A stretch of 64,000 bases of DNA from Candidatus Neomicrothrix sp. UBA2131 (GTDB lineage: Bacteria; Actinomycetota; Acidimicrobiia; Acidimicrobiales; MedAcidi-G1): the NCBI GenBank assembly GCA_002329075.1, contig DCXR01000074.1, positions 18,083 through 82,082 of the forward strand, given 5' to 3'. Below, in pieces: positions 7,147-36,311 of this stretch. Positions within the stretch are counted from its first letter, which is position 1, and each line of letters opens with the position of its first letter. Under the pieces are notes generated by a model. The model worked only from the letters and a program-made list of their open reading frames with translations. It was not told where the DNA came from and did not search any database. Both the position numbers and the translations under genes were made by a program.

Positions 7147-7163
7147 CCTGACGGACTGTCAGA
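7147..7163. promoter_or_regulatory. Palindromic operator candidate, copy 1: CCTGAC-GGACT-GTCAG(A)
   Basis: Lies in the 114-bp divergent intergenic region between ipdA (start 7109) and the SDR gene (start 7224). The same CCTGAC-N5-GTCAG core recurs at 15574 and 34480. Confidence 0.55.
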
Positions 7164-15573: not shown

Positions 15574-15590
15574 CCTGACGGTGCGTCAGG
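15574..15590. promoter_or_regulatory. Palindromic operator candidate, copy 2: CCTGAC-GGTGC-GTCAGG
   Basis: Perfect 6-bp arms in the 93-bp divergent region between SDR genes starting at 15559 (-) and 15653 (+). Confidence 0.55.
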
Positions 15591-26244: not shown

Positions 26245-26610
26245 TCAGTTCGCCCGGGCGAGTGCGGCGGCGGCCCGTTGGGCGGCCACCTGACGACGAC
26301 CAATGATGGGCGTGGTCGGGGCGAAGCCGGCGGTGGCGCGCTCGGACTCGGATTCGCCACCCCAGTAGCCCAACTCGCGGTTCTGGCGGGCGTAGTTCTT
26401 GCAGGAACCGGCGACGGGGCAGGCATCGCACAGTTGGTTGGCCTTGGCCTCCCGTCGGACCCGGGCCTCGGGGCGTTCGGCGAAGGGGGCGAAGAACAGG
26501 TCGCTCTCCCCATGGCAGGCGGCGGCGTCGACCCAGGTCATCCGGTCGTCCGCCAGCAGGATCGCTGCTGCCACGGTCAGGTCATCGATGCGGGTAGCCA
26601 GGTCGGTCAT
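26245..26610 (-). CDS. WhiB-family (Wbl) Fe-S transcription factor
   Basis: Four Cys in the Wbl pattern (C-x28-C-x2-C-x5-C: AACHG...LCDACPVAGSC), followed by GYWGG. A GGAGG-type SD lies upstream of the ATG. Confidence 0.9.
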   Translation of the reverse strand: MTDLATRIDDLTVAAAILLADDRMTWVDAAACHGESDLFFAPFAERPEARVRREAKANQLCDACPVAGSCKNYARQNRELGYWGGESESERATAGFAPTTPIIGRRQVAAQRAAAALARAN

Positions 26611-26722
26611 CGTGGGATCTCCTCGTCTGTCTCGATGGAGGCGGCCCCTCTGCCGTCCCCCTCATCCACGGCACGCGAACGTACGCCCTTCTGTGACGCC
26701 GGTACAGGGATTCGCGATAATT

Positions 26723-26741
26723 GATAGAGAACCTATCTATC
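26723..26741. promoter_or_regulatory. Inverted repeat GATAGA-N7-TCTATC in AT-rich whiB / MaoC divergent region
   Basis: Perfect 6-bp arms in the most AT-rich stretch of the window (ttcgcgataattgatagagaacctatctatctcttctggtgattgatg). Confidence 0.35.
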
Positions 26742-26847
26742 TCTTCTGGTGATTGATGAGTCGGTGTCACATGCCTCCCCACGATTACTCCTCGGTAGTA
26801 ACCACGAACAGTCGGCCCATGGCGGCGCTCGGCCACGACGGAGTGCC

Positions 26848-27867
26848 ATGCTCTCCCCGATGAGCACGCCCGACCCGGCCAGCGACCCGGGCCCCTACTT
26901 CGACGACCTCTCGCTGGGACAGTTGCTCGACCCCGCTCCCGCCGTCACGATCGACGAGGGTGAGGCCGCCGTCTACCAGGCCATCTGCGGCGACCCCCTC
27001 GCCCTCACCCTGAGCGCACCGCTTGCGGAGGCCGTGACCGGAGCCCCCGGACGCCTGGCCAACCCGGCGCTCGTCATGCACGTCTCGATCGGCCAGAGCA
27101 CGGTCGCCACCCAACGGGTCATCGCCAACCTCTTCTACCGGGGCGTGGCACTGAGCGAGACCATCCGACTCGGCGAGACCCTGCACACCACGGTCGAGGT
27201 CCGAGGGCTGCGCGAGACCACCCGTCGCGACGACCGCCCGCCCCGGGGACTCGCACTGCTAGGCATCCGCACCGTCCGGGTCGACGACGGCGCCCCGGTC
27301 GTCGACTACGAGCGCTGCGCCATGCTGAGGTTCCGCGATGAGGCTGCCGAAACCGGCCACGCAGACGACCTCGGCGGCGCAGATCCCGAGGTCGACCTGG
27401 CCGCATGGACAGAACGCATACCACCGGGTTGGGACCCCTCGCCGTTGGCCGATGCCGCCGACCGGGACTGGGCCGTCGGCGAGACCCGGGCCGACCTGAT
27501 GCGCGACACCGTAACGGCCGCCCCCGAGTTGGCCAGGCTCAGCCAGAACCTGGCGCCGGTGCACCGCGACGCCGCCGCCAACGAGGGCGGCCGACGACTC
27601 GTCTACGGCGGCCACACCATCGGACTGGCCCAGGCCTCCCTGGCGCGCCGCATGCCCGGCACCGCCACGGTGCTTGGCTGGCAGTCCTGCGACCACCCCG
27701 GACCCGTGTTCGAGGACGACGTGCTGTCGTGTCGCCACACGCTGCTCGACGAACAGGCGGTCGCCGGAGGTCGCCTGCGGGCCGTCCGCACCGAGGTGTC
27801 AGCCGAACGGGACGGTGAAGACGTCGGCCCGGTCCTCGACTGGCGGCTCGTGACGTGGGGTGCCTGA
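26848..27867 (+). CDS. MaoC-family (double hotdog) acyl-CoA hydratase/dehydratase
   Basis: About 340 aa with two hotdog-like halves. The C-terminal half carries RLVYGGHTIGLAQA, which is typical of itaconyl/mesaconyl-CoA hydratase-like MaoC proteins. ATG 26848 was chosen; 26860 is also possible. Confidence 0.7.
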   Translation: MLSPMSTPDPASDPGPYFDDLSLGQLLDPAPAVTIDEGEAAVYQAICGDPLALTLSAPLAEAVTGAPGRLANPALVMHVSIGQSTVATQRVIANLFYRGVALSETIRLGETLHTTVEVRGLRETTRRDDRPPRGLALLGIRTVRVDDGAPVVDYERCAMLRFRDEAAETGHADDLGGADPEVDLAAWTERIPPGWDPSPLADAADRDWAVGETRADLMRDTVTAAPELARLSQNLAPVHRDAAANEGGRRLVYGGHTIGLAQASLARRMPGTATVLGWQSCDHPGPVFEDDVLSCRHTLLDEQAVAGGRLRAVRTEVSAERDGEDVGPVLDWRLVTWGA

Positions 27868-27871
27868 CCCG

Positions 27872-29071
27872 CTAGGTCGCGACGACTCCGCGCTCTACCA
27901 GTGAGCCGATCTCGGTGGCACCGAGGCCGAGGTCGTCGGCGAGCACCTGCTCGGTGTGCTCGCCCAGCCGTGGCGCCGTTGCCGCACCCCGTCCCTCGAC
28001 CCCGGCGAACGCCAGCGGCGAACCGCACACCAGGTGGCGGCCCACGCCGGGCTGGTCGAGGTCGGCGAACAGCGGGTTGACCGTCGAGCACCTCTGGTCC
28101 TCGTCTACCATTTCGATGAAGGTCCGGTAGGGACCCCAGCACACGCCCTCGGCATCGAGACCGGAGGCGACCTCAGCGAGCGTGCGTGCGGCGAACCATG
28201 GCCCGAACAGGCCGCCGAGCCGGTCGCGGGCGAGGTAGCGCTCTCCCTCGTCGGCGAAGTCGACGCCCAACTCGTCGGCCAACGCCTCCACGGCATCGGT
28301 CGTACCCGTGGCCGACTGGAGGCCCCGCCACTGCTTCGGACTGATCGCCACGACCATGACCCGGCGGCCGTCCCCGGTCGGGAAGTCTGAGCCGTAGGCG
28401 CCGTAGAGGTCGTTGCCGATGGCCTCCCGCTGCGTACCGAGCAACTGGGCCTCGGCCAGGGAGCCGAGCATGGAGACCGTCGCCAGCGCCACATCGGACA
28501 GGGCAAGGGTCACGAGGTCGCCTACTCCCTCGAGGATCCGTCGCCGGTCGGCGGCGAGGAGGCCCACGGCGGCCATCTGCCCGCACACCAGGTCCCATGC
28601 CGGTACCACGTTGTTGACGGGCCGGGGGTCGTCGGCATGTCCCGTGGCCGACGGGTAGCCCACGGCGCAGTTCACCGTGTAGTCGACAGCGGTGGTGCCG
28701 TCGTGGTTGCCGGTGATGGCGACCATCACCAGGCCGTCTCCGCGCTGACGCAGCGATTCGTACGACAGCCATCCGACGGCCGGGAAGTTGGTGAGGAAGT
28801 TGCCGGCCCGTCCGACCAACTCGGCGACCAGGTCCTGTGCCTCGGGGTCCCCGAGGTCGACCGCCAGCGAGCGCTTGCCCTTGTTGAGTCCGTTCCAGTA
28901 GAGGCTGGCGCCGTCGGGGGTGAGCGGCCAGCGCCGGTGGTCGATGCCGCCGCCGATGCGGTCGAAGCGGATGACATCGGCCCCCAGTTGGGCCAGCGTC
29001 ATGCCACCCGACGGTGCGGCGACGAAGGCGGAGCCCTCGACGACCGTCAGGCCCTCGAGCGGAAGCGACAC
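27872..29071 (-). CDS. CaiB/BaiF family III CoA-transferase
   Basis: 399 aa with a GTG start. The family opening is LEGLTVVEGSAFVAAPSGGMTLAQLGADVIRFD. The start lies 5 nt after the peroxiredoxin stop. Confidence 0.85.
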   Translation of the reverse strand: MSLPLEGLTVVEGSAFVAAPSGGMTLAQLGADVIRFDRIGGGIDHRRWPLTPDGASLYWNGLNKGKRSLAVDLGDPEAQDLVAELVGRAGNFLTNFPAVGWLSYESLRQRGDGLVMVAITGNHDGTTAVDYTVNCAVGYPSATGHADDPRPVNNVVPAWDLVCGQMAAVGLLAADRRRILEGVGDLVTLALSDVALATVSMLGSLAEAQLLGTQREAIGNDLYGAYGSDFPTGDGRRVMVVAISPKQWRGLQSATGTTDAVEALADELGVDFADEGERYLARDRLGGLFGPWFAARTLAEVASGLDAEGVCWGPYRTFIEMVDEDQRCSTVNPLFADLDQPGVGRHLVCGSPLAFAGVEGRGAATAPRLGEHTEQVLADDLGLGATEIGSLVERGVVAT

Positions 29072-29076
29072 GCTCT

Positions 29077-29544
29077 CTAACTCAGCGTGGCTATGTCGGC
29101 CAGCAGGTCGGCGGCGTGCTCGTCGAGCGTCGTCGAGGCGTTGAGGTCGTAGGCCCTGGCGATGGTGCCGTCGGGGCCGATCAGGTAGGAGATGCGCAGC
29201 GGGAAGGCTGCGAGTCCCCCGTCTTCCGGCCGTAGCACCTCGTAGGCCTCGCCCATCGTCCGGTCCGGGTCGGCCAGCAGGGCGTACGGGAACTGCTCGC
29301 TCTCGGCGAAGGCCTTCTGCTCCTCGACGGTGTCGAAGCTGGCGCCGACGATCACGGCGTTGGCGCCGGTGAACTCGGGGGCTCGATCACGGAGCCCCCC
29401 TCCTTCGATCGTTCAACCGGGGGTGCTGGCCTTGGGGTACCACCACAGGGCCACCCACCTGCCGGCCAGGTCGTCGAGGGTGACGGTGTTGCCGTCCTGG
29501 TCGGGCACCGAGAATGCCGGCGCCGCGGTTCCTGCTTCGAGCAT
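29077..29544 (-). CDS. Bcp/PrxQ-type peroxiredoxin with in-frame TGA at the peroxidatic position (candidate selenoprotein, 155 codons)
   Basis: ATG 29542-29544 is preceded by AAGGA. Translation gives ...WVALWWYPKASTPG-TGA(29413-29415)-TIEGGGLRDRAPEF...VIVGASFDTVEEQKAF..., and it runs in frame into ORF 29077..29355. The TGA replaces the Cys of the PxxxTxxC motif. Confidence 0.7.
29377..29399 (-). promoter_or_regulatory. SECIS-like hairpin GGGGGCUC-CGUGAUC-GAGCCCCC
   Basis: Perfect 8-bp GC-rich stem with a 7-nt loop containing GU. It starts 13 nt after the in-frame UGA, so the apical loop lies 22-28 nt downstream, within the range described for bacterial SECIS elements. Confidence 0.6.
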
Positions 29545-29611
29545 CGTGGTCCTTTCAGGTCCGGGGGTCGATCGATGACGACCCTAGTTGGCGGCCGCGA
29601 GGATGGCCCGA

Positions 29612-32563
29612 TCAGTCGTCGAGGGCCTCGACCATCACCGAGTCGACGGACACGGCGGGTTCGTCCACATCCGGTTCGTCATCGTCGCCTTCGAACGCCT
29701 CGTCGAGTACCGACATGGCCTCTTCGAAGGCGTCGAAGACCGCGTTGTCGCCTGTGCCGCAGGCGAGGAAGAAGCCGTCGATCGCATACTCGGCCTCGCC
29801 GGGATCCTCGAACCCGTACTCCGACCCCAGGGTTTCGAGGGATGCCAGTTCGGGCAGGGCGGAGAGGAAGTCGTCCTTGCCGTCGAAGGCGTCGGCCACC
29901 CCGGCGGCCGCCGCGGACAGGTAGGCGGCGTTCGGCTGGAGTACGTCAGGGAGTTCGCCGACCAGCCAGGCCGCGTAGTCGCCGCCGGCACGCATGGTGT
30001 CGGCAAGGTCGGTGGGCGTGGCCGGTCGCCGATCCATGGAAGCGAGCGCCGTGGCCACCCGGGCTTCGTTGTCGGCGCAGAGGCCCTCTGAGGCGGTCGG
30101 ACCGTCGTAGGCGTCGGGCACGGGAACCTCCTCGAGGATCCCGACCTCGCCGTACTCGGGCTCGAGGTGGGCGCAGGCGGCATAGGCGGCGTCGTTGCGG
30201 TCCTGGAACTCCTCGGTCCACTCCTCGTTCCACCATCCGGGGCCACCCATCTCGGCGTCCATGCACTCCTCGTGGGCGACCCAGGCCTCGGTCGAGGCGA
30301 TCTGCTCCTCGATCCACCTCTTCTCGTCGTCGGGAGCCAGTTCGACGCACGACTTCATGCCCTCGAGGTACGCCGACTGGGACCATTCGTCGTCGGAGCT
30401 GACGTGGCCCCCCATGCACTCCTCGTACGGGAGCATCTCCTCCATTTCGACCAACCACTCCTCCATCTCGGCGCGCTGACCCTCGGGTGCGAGCGACACG
30501 CACTCGCTCATGCCCCGGACGTAGGCGGCCTGTGACCACTCCTCGTCGTCGAAGCCGATGTGGCCCTCCATGCACTCCTCGTACGGGAGCATCTCCTCCA
30601 TCGACTCGAGGTCACGCAGCATTTCGGCCTGAGCGTCCTCGGGCAACAGCGGCAGGCAGTCGCGCATGGCCTTGGTGTACGCCACCGACGACCACGAGTC
30701 CCGCGGCACCGCATCCTCGAGGCATTCCTCGTAGGGGCCCCACTCCTCGTCGTAGCCGCCCCGGTCGTCATCGTCCCAGTCGCCGTCACCCGCACAGGCC
30801 CCGAAGGCGAAGCCGCCGCCGTCCGAGACGGCGTCGGCGGGGTCACCGCAGCCGGAAGCCAACTTCTCGTCGTCGGAACCCGGATCGGAGTAGTCCCAGA
30901 GCACGTCGCAACTCCACGGGTCGCCGGACGTGCAGTCCCCGGCCAACACGGCCGGGTCGATCTCGGGCATGGCGGACTCGGTGCGCAACGCACCGGCACT
31001 CGTGCTCGACGGGTAGTCGTCGTTCGGTTCCATCGCCTGGTCCATCCCGCCCTCGGCCTTGCCGTCGCCGCCCATCAACTCCTCGGAGGCACCGAGGATC
31101 TCGCCCGCCGCCACGGGTGCGAGGAGGACGTCCTCGATGCCGAGGCCGATGTCGTCGAAGGCGCCCGAGAGTGCTGCGTCGAGCACCACGGCCATGTACT
31201 CGACCACGGTCTCGACCGGGCTGAGGTACCACGAGCCGTCGATCCTGCGCGTCACGACGAACAGGCCGTCGACGCCCAGGCCCGGTATGGCGTCCTCGAG
31301 GCAGCCCTCGTGCAGGCCCGTCGACCGGTCGGGGCCACCTTCGTCCTGCAGGTCGGCCAGGTAGTCGAACGCCGCACAGGTACCCCGGATCGTCAGCGTG
31401 GCGTCGGCGGACGCAGAACCCGCACCCTCGGGAAGGGTCAACGACCCGACCAGGTGCAGTACGACATCGGATACCACGACCTTGGTGCGTTCTTCGTCGA
31501 GCACCTCCTCGGTGGTGCCGATCTCGAGCGTGATGTCGAGTGCCGGCTCCATCTCGGCGACGAGGTCCTCGACCATGTCGGCCATCTCGTCGGTGTCCAT
31601 CTCCATCCCGTCGGGCACCGACTCGTTGACCTCGTCGAACAGACCCTGGAACATGGGGAGGTGGTCGAGGAACACGGACATCTCGTCGGGTGCGACCGGG
31701 ATCACCCCCTGGAGGGGATCCGCCAGGTCGATCGAGGGCACGAGCACCCCGGTCCGTATCTGGGCCAGCGCGGCATCGACCTCGGTATCGAAGTCGAAGC
31801 CGTTGACCTGGTCGACCACCACCTGGAGCACCCCGGAGGCGCTGTCGGTGCCCGCCGGCAGGCCGACCGTGGAGCCCTCGTAGTCGACCGGAGGCAGGTC
31901 GAGGAGCGTCCTCACGTATTCGAAGGAGGTGTAGAGAGGGCTCACGAACCAACGGCCCCGCTCGTGGACGACCATCACGAAGAGTTCTGATGGAAGCCTG
32001 ACGTCGAGGAGGTCGCCCGACTCGTAGGCGGCCGCCTCCTCGGCCAGCATCTCGTTGATCTCACCGAGCGTGATCGACTCGTCGACGGCCTCGGCCCCCT
32101 CCCGGAGGTTGGCGTCCATGGCCGACGGATCGACCGTGATACCGAGGCCGCCGTCGACGAGGTACACCTTGTGGACCCGTTCGTGGAGTGCGTCGACCCG
32201 GATGTCGAGGTCGGCGACCTGGAGGTCGATTCCTGCAAGGGGGTCGCTGCCGGCCAACGCCCCCTCCTTCTGCGCCAACTCGATCACCCGCGTGTAGAGG
32301 TCGACGGCATGGCCGACCTCGGACGGCGGAAGCATGGCCGCTGCACCCACCACGTCCTCGGCGGCCAGCGCCACGGCGAGGCCGTTGACGGCCTCCTCGG
32401 GAGAAGCCGCACCGATCACCGAGCCCTCGGAGGCGGAGCGCAGGCTCAGGATGACGGCGACGACGACGACCGCCGCCACGAGTGCCCCCAGAAGTGTCCA
32501 GCGCCTCGAACCCGAGGCCCGGCTCGCTTCACCTACGTGGTCGGGTACCGCCGTCGCGTCCAT
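29612..32563 (-). CDS. Large, extremely acidic, N-terminally membrane-anchored protein of unknown function (983 aa) with Cys-pair tandem repeats
   Basis: Long ORF with GC3 bias. Its antisense partner ORFs are His/Arg/Leu junk. The N-terminus has a basic patch followed by a TM helix (SRRWTLLGALVAAVVVVAVILSL). The rest is D/E-rich with very few K/R. I recognise no family. Confidence 0.8.
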   Translation of the reverse strand: MDATAVPDHVGEASRASGSRRWTLLGALVAAVVVVAVILSLRSASEGSVIGAASPEEAVNGLAVALAAEDVVGAAAMLPPSEVGHAVDLYTRVIELAQKEGALAGSDPLAGIDLQVADLDIRVDALHERVHKVYLVDGGLGITVDPSAMDANLREGAEAVDESITLGEINEMLAEEAAAYESGDLLDVRLPSELFVMVVHERGRWFVSPLYTSFEYVRTLLDLPPVDYEGSTVGLPAGTDSASGVLQVVVDQVNGFDFDTEVDAALAQIRTGVLVPSIDLADPLQGVIPVAPDEMSVFLDHLPMFQGLFDEVNESVPDGMEMDTDEMADMVEDLVAEMEPALDITLEIGTTEEVLDEERTKVVVSDVVLHLVGSLTLPEGAGSASADATLTIRGTCAAFDYLADLQDEGGPDRSTGLHEGCLEDAIPGLGVDGLFVVTRRIDGSWYLSPVETVVEYMAVVLDAALSGAFDDIGLGIEDVLLAPVAAGEILGASEELMGGDGKAEGGMDQAMEPNDDYPSSTSAGALRTESAMPEIDPAVLAGDCTSGDPWSCDVLWDYSDPGSDDEKLASGCGDPADAVSDGGGFAFGACAGDGDWDDDDRGGYDEEWGPYEECLEDAVPRDSWSSVAYTKAMRDCLPLLPEDAQAEMLRDLESMEEMLPYEECMEGHIGFDDEEWSQAAYVRGMSECVSLAPEGQRAEMEEWLVEMEEMLPYEECMGGHVSSDDEWSQSAYLEGMKSCVELAPDDEKRWIEEQIASTEAWVAHEECMDAEMGGPGWWNEEWTEEFQDRNDAAYAACAHLEPEYGEVGILEEVPVPDAYDGPTASEGLCADNEARVATALASMDRRPATPTDLADTMRAGGDYAAWLVGELPDVLQPNAAYLSAAAAGVADAFDGKDDFLSALPELASLETLGSEYGFEDPGEAEYAIDGFFLACGTGDNAVFDAFEEAMSVLDEAFEGDDDEPDVDEPAVSVDSVMVEALDD
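30130..30745 (-). repeat. Four tandem about 52-codon repeats inside the acidic protein gene (consensus PYEECM-x8-W-x3-AY-x3-M-x2-C-x2-L-x-P)
   Basis: An identical 33-nt block, catgcactcctcgtacgggagcatctcctccat, occurs at 30413-30445 and 30569-30601, a period of 156 nt. The protein repeats start PYEECLEDAV, PYEECMEGHI, PYEECMGGHV and AHEECMDAEM. Confidence 0.8.
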
Positions 32564-32988
32564 GCGGCGAGGCTACCGCCGACCGTGGTCAAGATCCCGG
32601 CCATCCCGGCCAGCCAGAGCCCCGTCCCGATGTGCGTGGCGTCGGCGACCCTCGCCGCCACTGCGACCACTACGGCGACCAGCATGACGACCCCGCCGAG
32701 CAGGCCGTGGGAAGGTCGCGCCCGCGGCGGTCCGGGCCAGGTCAGGAGCAGCACCGAGGCCGCTCCTGCCAGTGGAACCAGGTACCAGGCGATCCCCACC
32801 CACCCGGGTGGCCCGCCGCCCAGGTCGTCGCCCACGACCACCCAGAGTTCGGCCATCCGGAACCCGGTGACCGACGAGCCGACGACCTCGACCCAGGTGG
32901 CCCAGCCGCTCAGGATCGTGCCGACGGCCCCGAGCGCCACCAGGCCGACGGACAGGCGACCCGCAGCAGCAGGACCGGTGCTGGTCAT
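32533..32988 (-). CDS. Hypothetical integral membrane protein (151 aa, about 4 TM)
   Basis: Hydrophobic segments and good GC3 bias. The ATGA overlap links it to the aldehyde dehydrogenase stop. Its 3' end overlaps the acidic-protein start by 31 nt. Confidence 0.65.
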   Translation of the reverse strand: MTSTGPAAAGRLSVGLVALGAVGTILSGWATWVEVVGSSVTGFRMAELWVVVGDDLGGGPPGWVGIAWYLVPLAGAASVLLLTWPGPPRARPSHGLLGGVVMLVAVVVAVAARVADATHIGTGLWLAGMAGILTTVGGSLAAWTRRRYPTT

Positions 32989-34445
32989 GCCAGCCAGGAG
33001 ACCGCCTGGACCTCGCTGTAGGCCTCGAGGCCCCAGACGCCGCGGTCGCGACCTATGCCCGACATCTTGAAGCCGCCGAACGGGGCCTCGTTGTGGGGCT
33101 GGATGCTGTTGAGCGCCACGTTTCCGGACTGCAGGCGCCTGGCGATGCTGTGGGCACGTGCGGTATCACCGGCATAGACGTAGCTGAACAGCCCGTAGTC
33201 GGAGTCGTTGGCGATCGACACTGCCTCGTCGTCGTCATCGTGTGGGAGCACCACGACGACCGGACCGAAGGCCTCCTCGCGCACGCAGTGCATGTCGGGG
33301 GTGCAGTCGGCCATAAGGGTCGGTGCCACGTAGTAGCCGGGCAGGTCGGGGCGCTCGCCGCCGGCGACCAGCGTGGCCCCGGCGTCGACGCCGCCACGGA
33401 TGAACGCCTCGACGCTGTCCCGCTGGCGTTCGCTGATGAGCGGACCGACCAGGGTGTCGTCGTCGAGCGGGTCGCCCACCTTGAGCATCCCGGACACGGC
33501 CTCGAGGGTCGACACGAGCTGGTCGTAGAGGCTGCGGTGGCAGATGACCCTGGTGGGCGCCGTGCAGATCTGACCGCTGTGGAAGCCCCACACGCTGGCG
33601 ATGGCCTGCACGGCGGCGTTCACGTCGGCGTCGTCGGTCATGACGAGGGCGCCCTTGCCGCCGAGTTCCATGAGCACCCGGGTCATGGTGGCGGCGCCAT
33701 TGGCGTAGATGGCCGCACCGATGGCCGACGAGCCCGTGAAGCTGACCATGTTGACGCCCGGCGAGGCGACCAGGGTCGACGGTACATCCGAGCCCGAAGA
33801 GGTCAGGACGTTGACCACACCGGGCGGGAAGCCGGCCTCGGTGACGGCCCGGCCGAGGAGCAGGATGCCGAGCGGGTCCTGGGGCGCCGGCTTGATGATG
33901 CAGGTGTTGCCCATCGCCAGCGCCGGGGCGATCTTGCCGGCCATGTTCACGAGCGGGAAGTTGTAGGGGGTGATGCAGACGACCACGCCGACCGGCTGGC
34001 GGTGGACGACGGCTCCGACGAGGCCGGCCGGACCGAGTGCGGAGGCTCCGGCGGGCATGGGTTTCTCGGCGACGTCGAGATCCCGGGGTCTCGAGTAGTA
34101 GCGGAACCGGTCCACGAAGGTGCCACCCAGTTGCAGGGTCTGTGCGATCTTCATGGTGGCGCCGGTCTCGGCCTGCACGAGGGTCGCCCAGTCGGGCGAA
34201 CGTTCGGCCAGGATGTCGGCCAGGCGGCCGAGGAGGGCGCACCGCTCGACCATGGGCGTGTCGCGCCATCCGGGGAGCGCCCGGTTGGCGGCGACGATGG
34301 CGGCCTCGGCATCGGCGACGGTGGCCTCGGGGGCGTGGCCGATGACGGCGGTGGTGCTGGGATCGACGATCTCGTAGGTGGCGGAGGTTGCAACCTCGTC
34401 GCCTCCGATGAGGAGGTTCCACTGCTCCTGGGGGTCGATCTCCAT
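32985..34445 (-). CDS. Aldehyde dehydrogenase family protein
   Basis: 486 aa. Motifs: FTGSSAIG, the catalytic Glu in VLMELGGKG, the catalytic Cys in GQICTAPTR, and EEAFGPV. Confidence 0.9.
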   Translation of the reverse strand: MEIDPQEQWNLLIGGDEVATSATYEIVDPSTTAVIGHAPEATVADAEAAIVAANRALPGWRDTPMVERCALLGRLADILAERSPDWATLVQAETGATMKIAQTLQLGGTFVDRFRYYSRPRDLDVAEKPMPAGASALGPAGLVGAVVHRQPVGVVVCITPYNFPLVNMAGKIAPALAMGNTCIIKPAPQDPLGILLLGRAVTEAGFPPGVVNVLTSSGSDVPSTLVASPGVNMVSFTGSSAIGAAIYANGAATMTRVLMELGGKGALVMTDDADVNAAVQAIASVWGFHSGQICTAPTRVICHRSLYDQLVSTLEAVSGMLKVGDPLDDDTLVGPLISERQRDSVEAFIRGGVDAGATLVAGGERPDLPGYYVAPTLMADCTPDMHCVREEAFGPVVVVLPHDDDDEAVSIANDSDYGLFSYVYAGDTARAHSIARRLQSGNVALNSIQPHNEAPFGGFKMSGIGRDRGVWGLEAYSEVQAVSWLA

Positions 34446-34479
34446 CGTCGCTCCTGGTCGGTGTGCCCCGGCCGGGGGG

Positions 34480-34496
34480 CCTGACTGTTCGTCAGA
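34480..34496. promoter_or_regulatory. Palindromic operator candidate, copy 3: CCTGAC-TGTTC-GTCAG(A)
   Basis: Lies in the 162-bp divergent region between the aldehyde dehydrogenase (start 34445) and the amidohydrolase (start 34608). It is 35 nt from the ALDH start, similar to the 38 nt between copy 1 and ipdA. Confidence 0.55.
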
Positions 34497-34607
34497 TCGT
34501 AGGAGCCAGCCGACCGCCGCCCCAACGCCGCCGCCCCGTTCGACCCCATGTCCGGTCGGTCGGTACCGTGGTCATCGTTCAGTCCGCGTCTGATTGGGGA
34601 AGGCCGA

Positions 34608-36311
34608 ATGCTCGACACGGTGATTCGCGGCGGCTGGATCGTCGACGGCACCGGCGACGATCGCCGGCGTGCCGACCTCGGCATCGTCGACGGTCGGATC
34701 GTGGCGCTCGGAGACGTTGACGACGAGGCCGCCCACACGATCGATGCCGACGGCCGAGTCGTGGCCCCGGGGTTCATCGACGTCCACACCCACCTCGACG
34801 CCCAGCCCTTCTGGGACAGCACCCTCAGCCCCTCACCCCTGCACGGAGTGACCTCGGTGGTCGGGGGCAACTGCGGCTTCTCCATCGCTCCCCTGTCCGA
34901 CGACCCTGCCGACGGTGCGTACCTGATGCGGATGCTGGCCCGTGTCGAGGGCATGCCGATCGAATCGCTCCAGGAGGGCGTTCCCTGGAACTGGCGCACC
35001 ACCGCCGAGTACCTCGACGCGATAGAGCCCCACCTGGCCATCAACGCCGGCTACAAGGTCGGACACTCGGCCCTGCGACGGGTGGTGATGCACGAGGAGT
35101 GCACCGGACGCGAGGCCACACCCGACGAGTTGGCCGCCATGTGCGACCTGCTGCGGGACGGGCTGGCGGCAGGGGCGCTCGGCTTCTCGTCATCCTGGTC
35201 ACGCACCCACAACGACGGCGACGGCCACATGGTCCCCAGCCGCTACGCACACCGCGACGAACTCATCGAACTCTGCCGGGTGGTCGGCGAGTTCCCCGGC
35301 ACGGGCATCGAGTTCCTGCCCATGGCCGGTCGGCACGAGGACTGGGCCGTCGAGTTGATGACCGACATGTCGCTGGCCGCCGGCGGCCGCCAACTCAACT
35401 GGAACGTCCTCACGGTCAGCGCCACAAGCCTCGACGATGCCCGCCACCGGATGCGGTCCGGTCCCTACGCCGCCGAGCGCGGCGCCAGGGTCGTCGCCCT
35501 CACGGTGCCCTTCACCTTCGGGCTGCGCATGTCGTTCGCCAGCGGCTTCATCCTCGACGCCCTCCCCGGCTGGGAAGAGGCGATGCTGCTCCCGAGGGAG
35601 GCCAAGAAGCGCCTGCTCTCCGACCCCGACCAGCGGCGCCGCCTGGAGCAGCAGGCGCAACAGGACAGTCCCTTCCGGGGGCTCGCCAGGTGGGAGACCC
35701 AGGTCATCTTCGACACGTTCGCCCCGGAGAACGACGGCTACTCGGGCCGCACGGTCGGCGACGTGGCCGCCGAGCTCGGCAAGGAGCCCTTCGACGCCCT
35801 GGTCGACATCGCCCTGGCCGACGACCTGTTGACCTCGTTCGGCCGGGAGGACCCCTTCCAGTCCCGGGAGGACTGGGAGGCCCGGATCGGCGTCTGGCGG
35901 GACGAGCACGTGGTGGTCGGCGCATCCGACGCCGGCGCCCACCTCGACATGTTCGGCACCTTCAACTTCACCACCCGCCTCATCGGGGGAGCCGTCCGGG
36001 AACACGGCCTGATCGACCTCGAGGAGGCGGTGCACCTGCTGACCGCAAGGCAGGCCGACCTCTACGGACTGGTCGACCGGGGCCGGATCGCCGAGGATGC
36101 CCACGCCGACCTGGTGGTCTTCGACGAGCACAGCATCGGATCCGACCCGCTCAGCCTGCGGGCCGACCTCCCCGGCGGTGCCGCCCGCCTCTACGCCGGT
36201 TCGTCCGGCATCGACGAGGTGCTGTGCGCCGGAGTTCCCGTAGTGAGCGGCGGTGACTTCACCGAAGCCCGCCCGGGCCGCGTGCTGCGAAGCGGCACGG
36301 ACACCCGCTGA
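34608..36311 (+). CDS. Amidohydrolase, N-acyl-D-amino-acid deacylase (D-aminoacylase) family
   Basis: Trimmed to ATG 34608 (MLDTVIRGGWIVDGTG), with a GGGGAAGG SD-like element upstream. It has the metal motif PGFIDVHTHLD and the C-terminal ADLVVFD. Confidence 0.85.
   Translation: MLDTVIRGGWIVDGTGDDRRRADLGIVDGRIVALGDVDDEAAHTIDADGRVVAPGFIDVHTHLDAQPFWDSTLSPSPLHGVTSVVGGNCGFSIAPLSDDPADGAYLMRMLARVEGMPIESLQEGVPWNWRTTAEYLDAIEPHLAINAGYKVGHSALRRVVMHEECTGREATPDELAAMCDLLRDGLAAGALGFSSSWSRTHNDGDGHMVPSRYAHRDELIELCRVVGEFPGTGIEFLPMAGRHEDWAVELMTDMSLAAGGRQLNWNVLTVSATSLDDARHRMRSGPYAAERGARVVALTVPFTFGLRMSFASGFILDALPGWEEAMLLPREAKKRLLSDPDQRRRLEQQAQQDSPFRGLARWETQVIFDTFAPENDGYSGRTVGDVAAELGKEPFDALVDIALADDLLTSFGREDPFQSREDWEARIGVWRDEHVVVGASDAGAHLDMFGTFNFTTRLIGGAVREHGLIDLEEAVHLLTARQADLYGLVDRGRIAEDAHADLVVFDEHSIGSDPLSLRADLPGGAARLYAGSSGIDEVLCAGVPVVSGGDFTEARPGRVLRSGTDTR

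Follow-up and report, generated by a model that had tools for sequence, protein, structure and literature searches.

In the 64,000-nt window of Candidatus Neomicrothrix sp. UBA2131 analysed here (contig C43, positions 18083-82082), five genes follow one another on the minus strand, encoding an aldehyde dehydrogenase (ALDH), a 151-aa membrane protein with a hydrophobic profile of the four-transmembrane (4-TM) type, a 983-aa acidic protein, a selenocysteine (Sec) peroxiredoxin (Prx) and a family-III CoA-transferase (CoAT). Our analysis indicates that this string is probably an evolutionary mosaic of three units rather than the operon of a single pathway. The first unit would be the ALDH gene under a palindromic operator, transcribed divergently from an amidohydrolase/O-methyltransferase (OMT) pair. 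The second would be an ancient pair of the Sec-Prx and a mesaconyl-CoA-isomerase-like CoAT, for which a separate promoter is predicted. The third, the 4-TM and 983-aa envelope pair, would have been acquired by the ancestor of the genus (g1) and inserted at the exact place that separates the ALDH stop codon from the Prx promoter. No new pathway is needed, because the string is then a widely conserved enzyme cluster into which an unrelated envelope module was inserted. The first ATG of this pair and the ALDH stop codon share the sequence ATGA, and transcription that starts at the ALDH promoter and reads through is therefore the probable source of its expression. The 983-aa protein would be exported or anchored by its N-terminal helix and would display, in this order, two alpha+beta domains, helical Cys repeats of the disulfide type and a domain that also occurs in other secreted proteins. 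Its role is most likely that of an envelope scaffold or of a sensing or binding protein, rather than a step in acyl-CoA metabolism.

Conservation of the gene string across genera

The genome has 2.27 Mb in 83 contigs, about 70% G+C, and is 96% complete. The initial annotation had described five head-to-tail minus-strand genes, and all of them were found at the same coordinates and with the same overlaps and gaps (Table 1). The ATG of the 151-aa gene lies on the ALDH TGA, in a 4-nt ATGA overlap that is made up by the final base of an Ala codon in ALDH and the first two stop bases, and the 151-aa and 983-aa genes have 31 nt in common. The 983-aa gene is separated from Prx by 67 nt, and Prx from CoAT by 5 nt, so that all five genes share one strand with short or no gaps, as in an operon. 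The ALDH reached no NCBIfam equivalog cut-off, and neither the 151-aa nor the 983-aa protein had a match in Pfam or NCBIfam.

We compared this region among four usable genomes of the same genus (g1) and 12 genomes from five other genera of the family. The full five-gene string was present in g1 only, in all four genomes, within a syntenic block that runs through a short-chain dehydrogenase/reductase (SDR), a MaoC-type hydratase, CoAT, Prx, the 983-aa and 151-aa proteins, ALDH, the amidohydrolase and OMT (4/4 genomes). The flanking enzymes of these genomes are mostly 80-95% identical in protein sequence. As the synteny within the genus spans the whole 12-kb region, the gene order there carries little functional information.

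Beyond the genus the order is not kept. In g2, g4 and g5 the ALDH gene is followed after 70-125 nt by Sec-Prx and CoAT with zero intervening genes, and in g3 and g7 only Sec-Prx and CoAT are found, ALDH being missing at that place; ALDH therefore lies upstream of the Prx-CoAT pair in g1, g2, g4 and g5. A single CoAT orthologue was detected in each of the 41 genomes of the taxonomic family, directly downstream of Sec-Prx in 16/16 loci examined from six genera. When the N-terminal half of the 983-aa protein served as the profile, on the other hand, members were found in 5 of 57 family genomes, all of them g1 (one of seven genera). The segment that carries the 151-aa and 983-aa genes measures 3.4 kb, with the ALDH stop codon on one side and the sequence upstream of Prx on the other. 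Because the pair occurs only in g1 and the sister genera are without it, we interpret this segment as a genus-specific insertion, at whose borders no transposon-like flanking direct or inverted repeats were found.

These data do not agree with the proposal of a single five-gene operon for one undescribed pathway, since the sister genera keep ALDH-Prx-CoAT or Prx-CoAT alone. The conservation of the neighbourhood, which the initial annotation had put forward as a check, extends for the 983-aa and 4-TM genes only to very close same-genus relatives. Together with the promoter predicted before Prx (see below), this is largely what the initial annotation had named as speaking against its proposal. 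In a streamlined genome of 2.3 Mb, closely packed genes with overlapping starts and stops do not, taken alone, point to a shared pathway; here it is the comparison across genera that tells the old enzyme cluster and the recent insertion apart.

The palindromic operator and the ALDH promoter

The ALDH and amidohydrolase genes diverge from an intergenic region that holds a palindromic, operator-like site of 17 bp, CCTGACTGTTCGTCAGA. Within this site CCTGACTGTTCGTCAG (34480-34495) matches CCTGAC-N5-GTCAG exactly and stands 35 nt ahead of the ALDH start. The suggestion that this palindrome is an operator shared with other operons is borne out by three exact copies in the window and by 11 promoter-proximal sites at catabolic genes of the genome. 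Allowing up to one mismatch, the window contains 9 palindrome matches against 2.8 expected, a number that was reached in 0 of 100 shuffles. Over the genome, CTGAC-N5-GTCAG occurs at 11 sites, compared with 0-3 for spacers of 2-9 nt and for control arrangements. These sites follow the consensus yCTGACGGnCCGTCAGr, and all 11 are at gene 5' ends. The genes beside them encode family-I and family-III CoA-transferases, several SDRs, an acyl-CoA dehydrogenase, a ChsH2-type OB-fold protein, two Amidohydro_2 proteins, a DAO oxidoreductase and a phosphoenolpyruvate-utilising enzyme, while two of the sites adjoin less typical genes (a tRNA synthetase and a GH3 glycosidase). The ALDH/amidohydrolase site itself is kept in 4/4 same-genus genomes and also in g4 and g5 (three genera), with one mismatch in two of the same-genus copies and in the g4 copy. 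The palindrome is thus over-represented, promoter-proximal and conserved at orthologous sites, the properties by which a transcription-factor operator is recognised.

The other two exact copies of the window, at 7147-7163 and 15574-15590, are both in divergent intergenic regions, one between genes for a family-I CoA-transferase subunit and an SDR and the other between two SDR genes. Palindromes with one mismatch were also noticed about 260 nt upstream of Sec-Prx in g3 (L059:11644, L068:9590, L060:8878), at loci without ALDH.

A candidate -10 hexamer of the ALDH promoter, TACGAT, abuts the palindrome, so that a bound dimer would occlude the ALDH start site. A repressor dimer would most likely bind the palindrome and cover the point where ALDH transcription begins; control of ALDH by the palindrome can be predicted with confidence, and the palindrome probably controls the divergent amidohydrolase and OMT genes as well. 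Palindromic operators are known in actinobacterial catabolic regulons, for example in the KstR/KstR2-type TetR regulons of steroid catabolism. The site described here resembles them in being a perfect inverted repeat at several CoA-transferase, SDR and acyl-CoA dehydrogenase promoters, often placed in divergent intergenic regions, whereas its sequence, CTGAC-N5-GTCAG, is one that we take to be unlike the KstR and KstR2 consensus. In uncultured marine Acidimicrobiales it would define a regulon of acyl-CoA-type catabolic genes with about 11 promoters.

A predicted promoter upstream of the peroxiredoxin

The region upstream of ALDH had been regarded as the only obvious promoter region of the string. 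The 67-nt gap before Prx, however, contains the sequence CTAGGGTC, which is conserved and resembles a -10 element. Across five genera, 12 of the 17 orthologous regions have an element of the form CTA(G/C/T)GGTC at a distance of 30-50 nt ahead of Prx, and it is kept whichever gene precedes Prx (983-aa, ALDH, OMT or other) and in GC-rich as well as AT-richer genomes. In the genome as a whole, 15 of the 33 copies of CTAGGGTC are located 0-120 nt upstream of a same-strand start, where about 1.4 (approximately 4%) would be expected. Ten of these 15 copies sit 13-16 nt from the start codon, with TAGGGT just upstream of the start. A -10 box at such a spacing is expected for leaderless mRNAs, and the distribution suggests that CTAGGGTC acts genome-wide like a strong -10 box and that many transcripts are leaderless. 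Since the element is conserved and the motif is promoter-associated throughout the genome, we predict an independent promoter for Prx and CoAT, and the pair probably has its own; this prediction comes from conservation and motif geometry only. The string would accordingly contain an internal promoter, contrary to what is expected of one operon. A scan of 26500-35500 with a promoter consensus returned a single sigma-70-like site, which precedes the MaoC gene; such a search is uninformative for the actinobacterial promoters considered here. The motif, with its spacing of 13-16 nt from the start, could aid promoter mapping in these genomes.

The alternative that all five genes form a true operon, transcribed from the operator-controlled ALDH promoter and acting together, has to be weighed against these results. 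The surface protein could, for example, capture or sense a lipidic substrate, ALDH and CoAT could process aldehyde and acyl-CoA intermediates, and Prx could remove peroxides. This alternative agrees with the common strand, with the 4-nt and 31-nt overlaps and the gaps of 67 nt and 5 nt, with an order that is kept in all same-genus genomes, and with the operator, through which the ALDH promoter is connected with a catabolic regulon; weak hints of an NTF2-like fold in the ectodomains, described below, also speak for it, as this fold often binds hydrophobic ligands. It is nevertheless unlikely, given that six other genera of the family have ALDH-Prx-CoAT or Prx-CoAT without the 4-TM and 983-aa genes, that relatives of the big protein sit in unrelated contexts, that a predicted -10 element is conserved ahead of Prx, and that the same-genus synteny covers the whole 12-kb region and so says little about function.

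Several observations weigh against the mosaic that we favour. The ATGA and 31-nt overlaps are kept in all same-genus genomes, which implies that expressing ALDH together with the envelope pair is either selected for or tolerated, and a regulatory link to the catabolic regulon is therefore possible in this genus. The acquisition in g1 would follow from parsimony, the alternative being a loss in six genera. The predicted internal promoter is compatible with read-through from the ALDH promoter into Prx and CoAT, and no intrinsic terminator was predicted in 26500-35500, as the five-gene operon would also have it. Finally, the homology of the 4-TM proteins discussed below is weak, with pairwise E-values from 6e-4 to 4e-3 and two invariant columns only.

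The 983-aa protein

The reading frame of the 983-aa protein is, by its sequence properties, a real gene, because it has homologues and a strong codon-position GC signal (GC3-GC2 = 0.45). We found 36 homologues, with full-length ones at 65-98% identity, among which the N-terminal 470 residues are near-invariant; the close homologues are labelled as metagenome-assembled genomes of 'Acidimicrobiales bacterium' or 'Actinomycetota bacterium'. That the frame might be a spurious GC-rich open frame, and the operon an artefact, was considered since the region has 66-73% G+C with many long overlapping open frames on both strands, and since the protein matches neither Pfam nor NCBIfam. The domain-wise conservation in 36 homologues, the 462 representative clusters described below, the GC3-GC2 value and a high-confidence fold from the family alignment leave practically no room for this explanation, which the conservation pattern and the co-evolution signal behind the AlphaFold2 model already refute.

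The protein has a pI of 4.05, 22% Asp+Glu, 16 Cys and a single N-terminal hydrophobic helix. It was claimed to be extracytoplasmic, and the N-terminal helix, the paired cysteines and a C-terminal domain in common with a lipobox lipoprotein support this prediction. Three parts can be distinguished: an ectodomain core, an acidic Cys-rich region and the C-terminal domain (Table 1). A profile search against 1.84 billion representatives retrieved 462 clusters at E-values up to 1e-3, and most of the best matches were proteins of 370-590 aa that cover residues 15-465, approximately, of the query. Members of this family have a variable cytoplasmic N-terminus, one transmembrane helix and two domains, each of which ends in G-x-W-[YF]-x-S-P...T..EY; the second of them also has two conserved Cys. 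The Cys-repeat region is present in only two close representatives, apart from one 58-aa fragment.

AlphaFold2 modelled the ectodomain core from an alignment of 66 sequences with a pLDDT of 87.9 and a pTM of 0.83. A Foldseek search of the PDB with the N-terminal model gave no significant match (best E-value 1e-2, TM-scores <0.2); the weak NTF2-like or cystatin-like hints included PBP2a chains, with probabilities of 0.8-0.96 and a root-mean-square deviation of about 5 A over about 155 columns. A sequence profile search of the PDB matched only a protease C-terminal-type domain of longer family members and left the core unmatched. The full-length AlphaFold2 model, built with 10 close homologues, had a mean pLDDT of 40 and was confident only in the Cys repeats, which were modelled as helical hairpins (pLDDT about 76-86, aa 607-800); it was not used for the fold search. 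The family is an unnamed and widespread envelope family that has a confident predicted fold and no solved relative, and whose partner alternates between a 4-TM protein and an extracytoplasmic function (ECF) sigma factor.

The C-terminal residues, about 160, recur in a lipobox lipoprotein that has a Thr/Pro linker and a right-handed beta-helix, and they are missing in the orthologues of two same-genus genomes (G001 and G003). Together, these features suggest a protein that is extracytoplasmic, modular and without relation to acyl-CoA chemistry. A Tat (twin-arginine translocation) signal was raised by the residues S-R-R-W and dropped since close homologues read K-R there.

The paralogous lipoprotein, L076:5292-8087 (+) (G004:C9), found also at a contig end in G000:C4, carries a lipobox, TTTAAP repeats and a NosD-like beta-helix, and its gene adjoins a small cupredoxin-like gene. 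Within the Cys-repeat region of the 983-aa gene, a 59-nt direct repeat that is 93% identical (30387-30445 / 30543-30601) suggests a recent internal duplication or gene conversion between Cys repeats.

The 4-TM partner and the contexts of distant relatives

A crude hydropathy scan of the 151-aa protein resolved three hydrophobic stretches. Across the class, the profile of the N-terminal half detected a member of the 983-aa family in 24 of 251 genomes, with two types of immediate upstream neighbour. The first is a gene for a 4-TM protein of about 140-165 aa (G053, G092, G291, G106, G125, G140 and G039); these proteins are matched in size and topology and have an invariant Trp after the first transmembrane helix, with weak sequence similarity. 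The second, in eight genomes, is an ECF sigma gene (Sigma70_r2/r4) that abuts or overlaps the start of the homologue. No recurrent ALDH, Prx or CoAT was seen beside the distant relatives, one ALDH being located 6 kb off.

The distant homologues beside ECF sigma genes share with single-pass anti-sigma factors a cytoplasmic N-terminus and one transmembrane helix, and they have the same ectodomain as the 983-aa protein. The pair in the window differs from such arrangements in that it is without an adjacent sigma factor, has a cytoplasmic tail of about 22 residues and is accompanied by the 4-TM protein. An anti-sigma role of the 983-aa protein was dropped given the 4-TM upstream neighbour, the short tail (about 22 aa) and an anti-sigma domain that could not be detected. 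The ectodomain homologues downstream of ECF sigma genes in other Acidimicrobiia (L082-L085, L087, L089, L090 and L095) have a cytoplasmic segment of 60-100 aa with a conserved L-A-x-R-G-T-P-R-G-x-D and without a recognised anti-sigma domain; they may represent an undescribed class of anti-sigma factors.

Since the 4-TM and 983-aa genes form an autonomous module in other genomes, they could also have a promoter of their own inside the 3' end of ALDH, so that the string would consist of three separate transcription units. Actinobacterial -10 boxes are short and could be embedded in coding sequence, which we counted in favour of this possibility. We hold it to be highly doubtful, as no candidate promoter was identified in the 3' end of ALDH and the ATGA overlap kept in all same-genus genomes has the classic form of translational coupling. 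A further speculation, to which we give little credence, is that the 4-TM protein and the tandem-domain ectoprotein are an undescribed sensing or binding module of the Acidimicrobiia envelope that was captured in g1 by a substrate-responsive catabolic promoter. If this were true, an acidic surface protein would be induced together with ALDH, for instance to capture or sense the substrate of the regulon at the cell surface.

The peroxiredoxin-CoA-transferase pair and selenocysteine

The claim that the peroxiredoxin is a selenoprotein is borne out at the sequence level: the AhpC-TSA domain, the in-frame TGA, a selenocysteine insertion sequence (SECIS) hairpin and the Sec machinery were all identified. 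The Prx frame is readable only if the TGA is decoded, and this codon is kept in 16/16 orthologues from six genera. The consensus fold of the SECIS had 0 broken pairs and 2 compensatory pairs among 12 sequences. In the genome, selA (390 bits), selB (270 bits) and selD (359 bits) scored above their cut-offs, selA and selB adjoin each other on C35, and a tRNA-Sec with the anticodon tca was found by ARAGORN. By sequence criteria the peroxiredoxin is a Sec-containing enzyme. A family of Sec-containing Prx (T/SxxU) has been described among bacterial selenoproteins (Zhang et al. 2006, PMC1794560), so that the identification is correct and already known. The enzyme shares with this family the AhpC-TSA fold, a UGA at the peroxidatic Cys (TPGU), a bacterial-type SECIS nearby downstream and a complete set of selA, selB, selD and tRNA-Sec, and differs in nothing essential; its own features are the short Bcp/PrxQ type, the occurrence in aerobic marine Acidimicrobiales and the constant pairing with a family-III CoAT.

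The best NCBIfam match of CoAT is TIGR04253 (2-methylfumaryl-CoA isomerase), with 491 bits, below the equivalog cut-off of 725 bits, and other models of family-III enzymes gave <100 bits. CoAT resembles 2-methylfumaryl-CoA isomerase and mesaconyl-CoA C1-C4 CoA-transferase in its family-III fold and in the convergent MaoC-type hydratase alongside, whereas its score is under the cut-off of TIGR04253, and it is placed only as a family-III CoA-transferase (PF02515). The 5-nt gap and the universal adjacency make Prx-CoAT a real conserved operon.

The hydratase gene convergent with CoAT encodes a two-domain MaoC protein and is syntenic in most genera, and together with CoAT (window 26749-29071 for the two genes) it suggests a module of the mesaconyl/citramalyl-CoA type. 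The selD match of the genome (G000:C65:28085-29005 (-)) contains one in-frame TGA, because of which SelD itself is probably a selenoprotein.

Features of the region

The positions of the genes and of the elements discussed above are given in Table 1. No RNA genes were found in the window by Rfam (gathering thresholds) or ARAGORN.

Table 1. Genes, protein regions and predicted regulatory elements of the five-gene string, in window positions.
Feature	Position	Strand	Remarks
ALDH, 486 aa	32985-34445	-	PF00171 (Aldedh) 1.7e-146
151-aa membrane protein, 4-TM-type hydrophobic profile	32533-32988	-	First gene of the putative inserted envelope pair
983-aa acidic protein, predicted N-terminally anchored or secreted	29612-32563	-	Second gene of the putative inserted pair
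Ectodomain core, aa 50-470	31154-32416	-	Two alpha+beta domains, each ending G-x-W-[YF]-x-S-P
Cys-rich acidic region, aa 541-815	30119-30943	-	Four repeats of ~52 aa with paired cysteines
C-terminal domain, aa 820-983	29615-30106	-	Common to other extracytoplasmic proteins of the genus
Predicted -10 element of the Prx-CoAT promoter, CTAGGGTC	29580-29587	-	43 nt upstream of the Prx ATG
Sec Bcp/PrxQ-type Prx, 155 aa	29077-29544	-	AhpC-TSA (PF00578) 9.4e-33
In-frame UGA of Prx	29413-29415	-	At the peroxidatic Cys, motif T-P-G-U-T (KASTPGUTIEG)
SECIS hairpin	29378-29398	-	7-bp stem, CGUGAUC loop, begins 14 nt after the UGA
Family-III CoAT, 399 aa	27872-29071	-	CoA_transf_3 (PF02515) 1e-55
Palindromic operator-like site, 17 bp, CCTGACTGTTCGTCAGA	34480-34496	.	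In the intergenic region from which ALDH and the amidohydrolase gene diverge
Candidate -10 hexamer TACGAT of the ALDH promoter	34496-34501	-	Abuts the operator; fits TAnnnT; inference only

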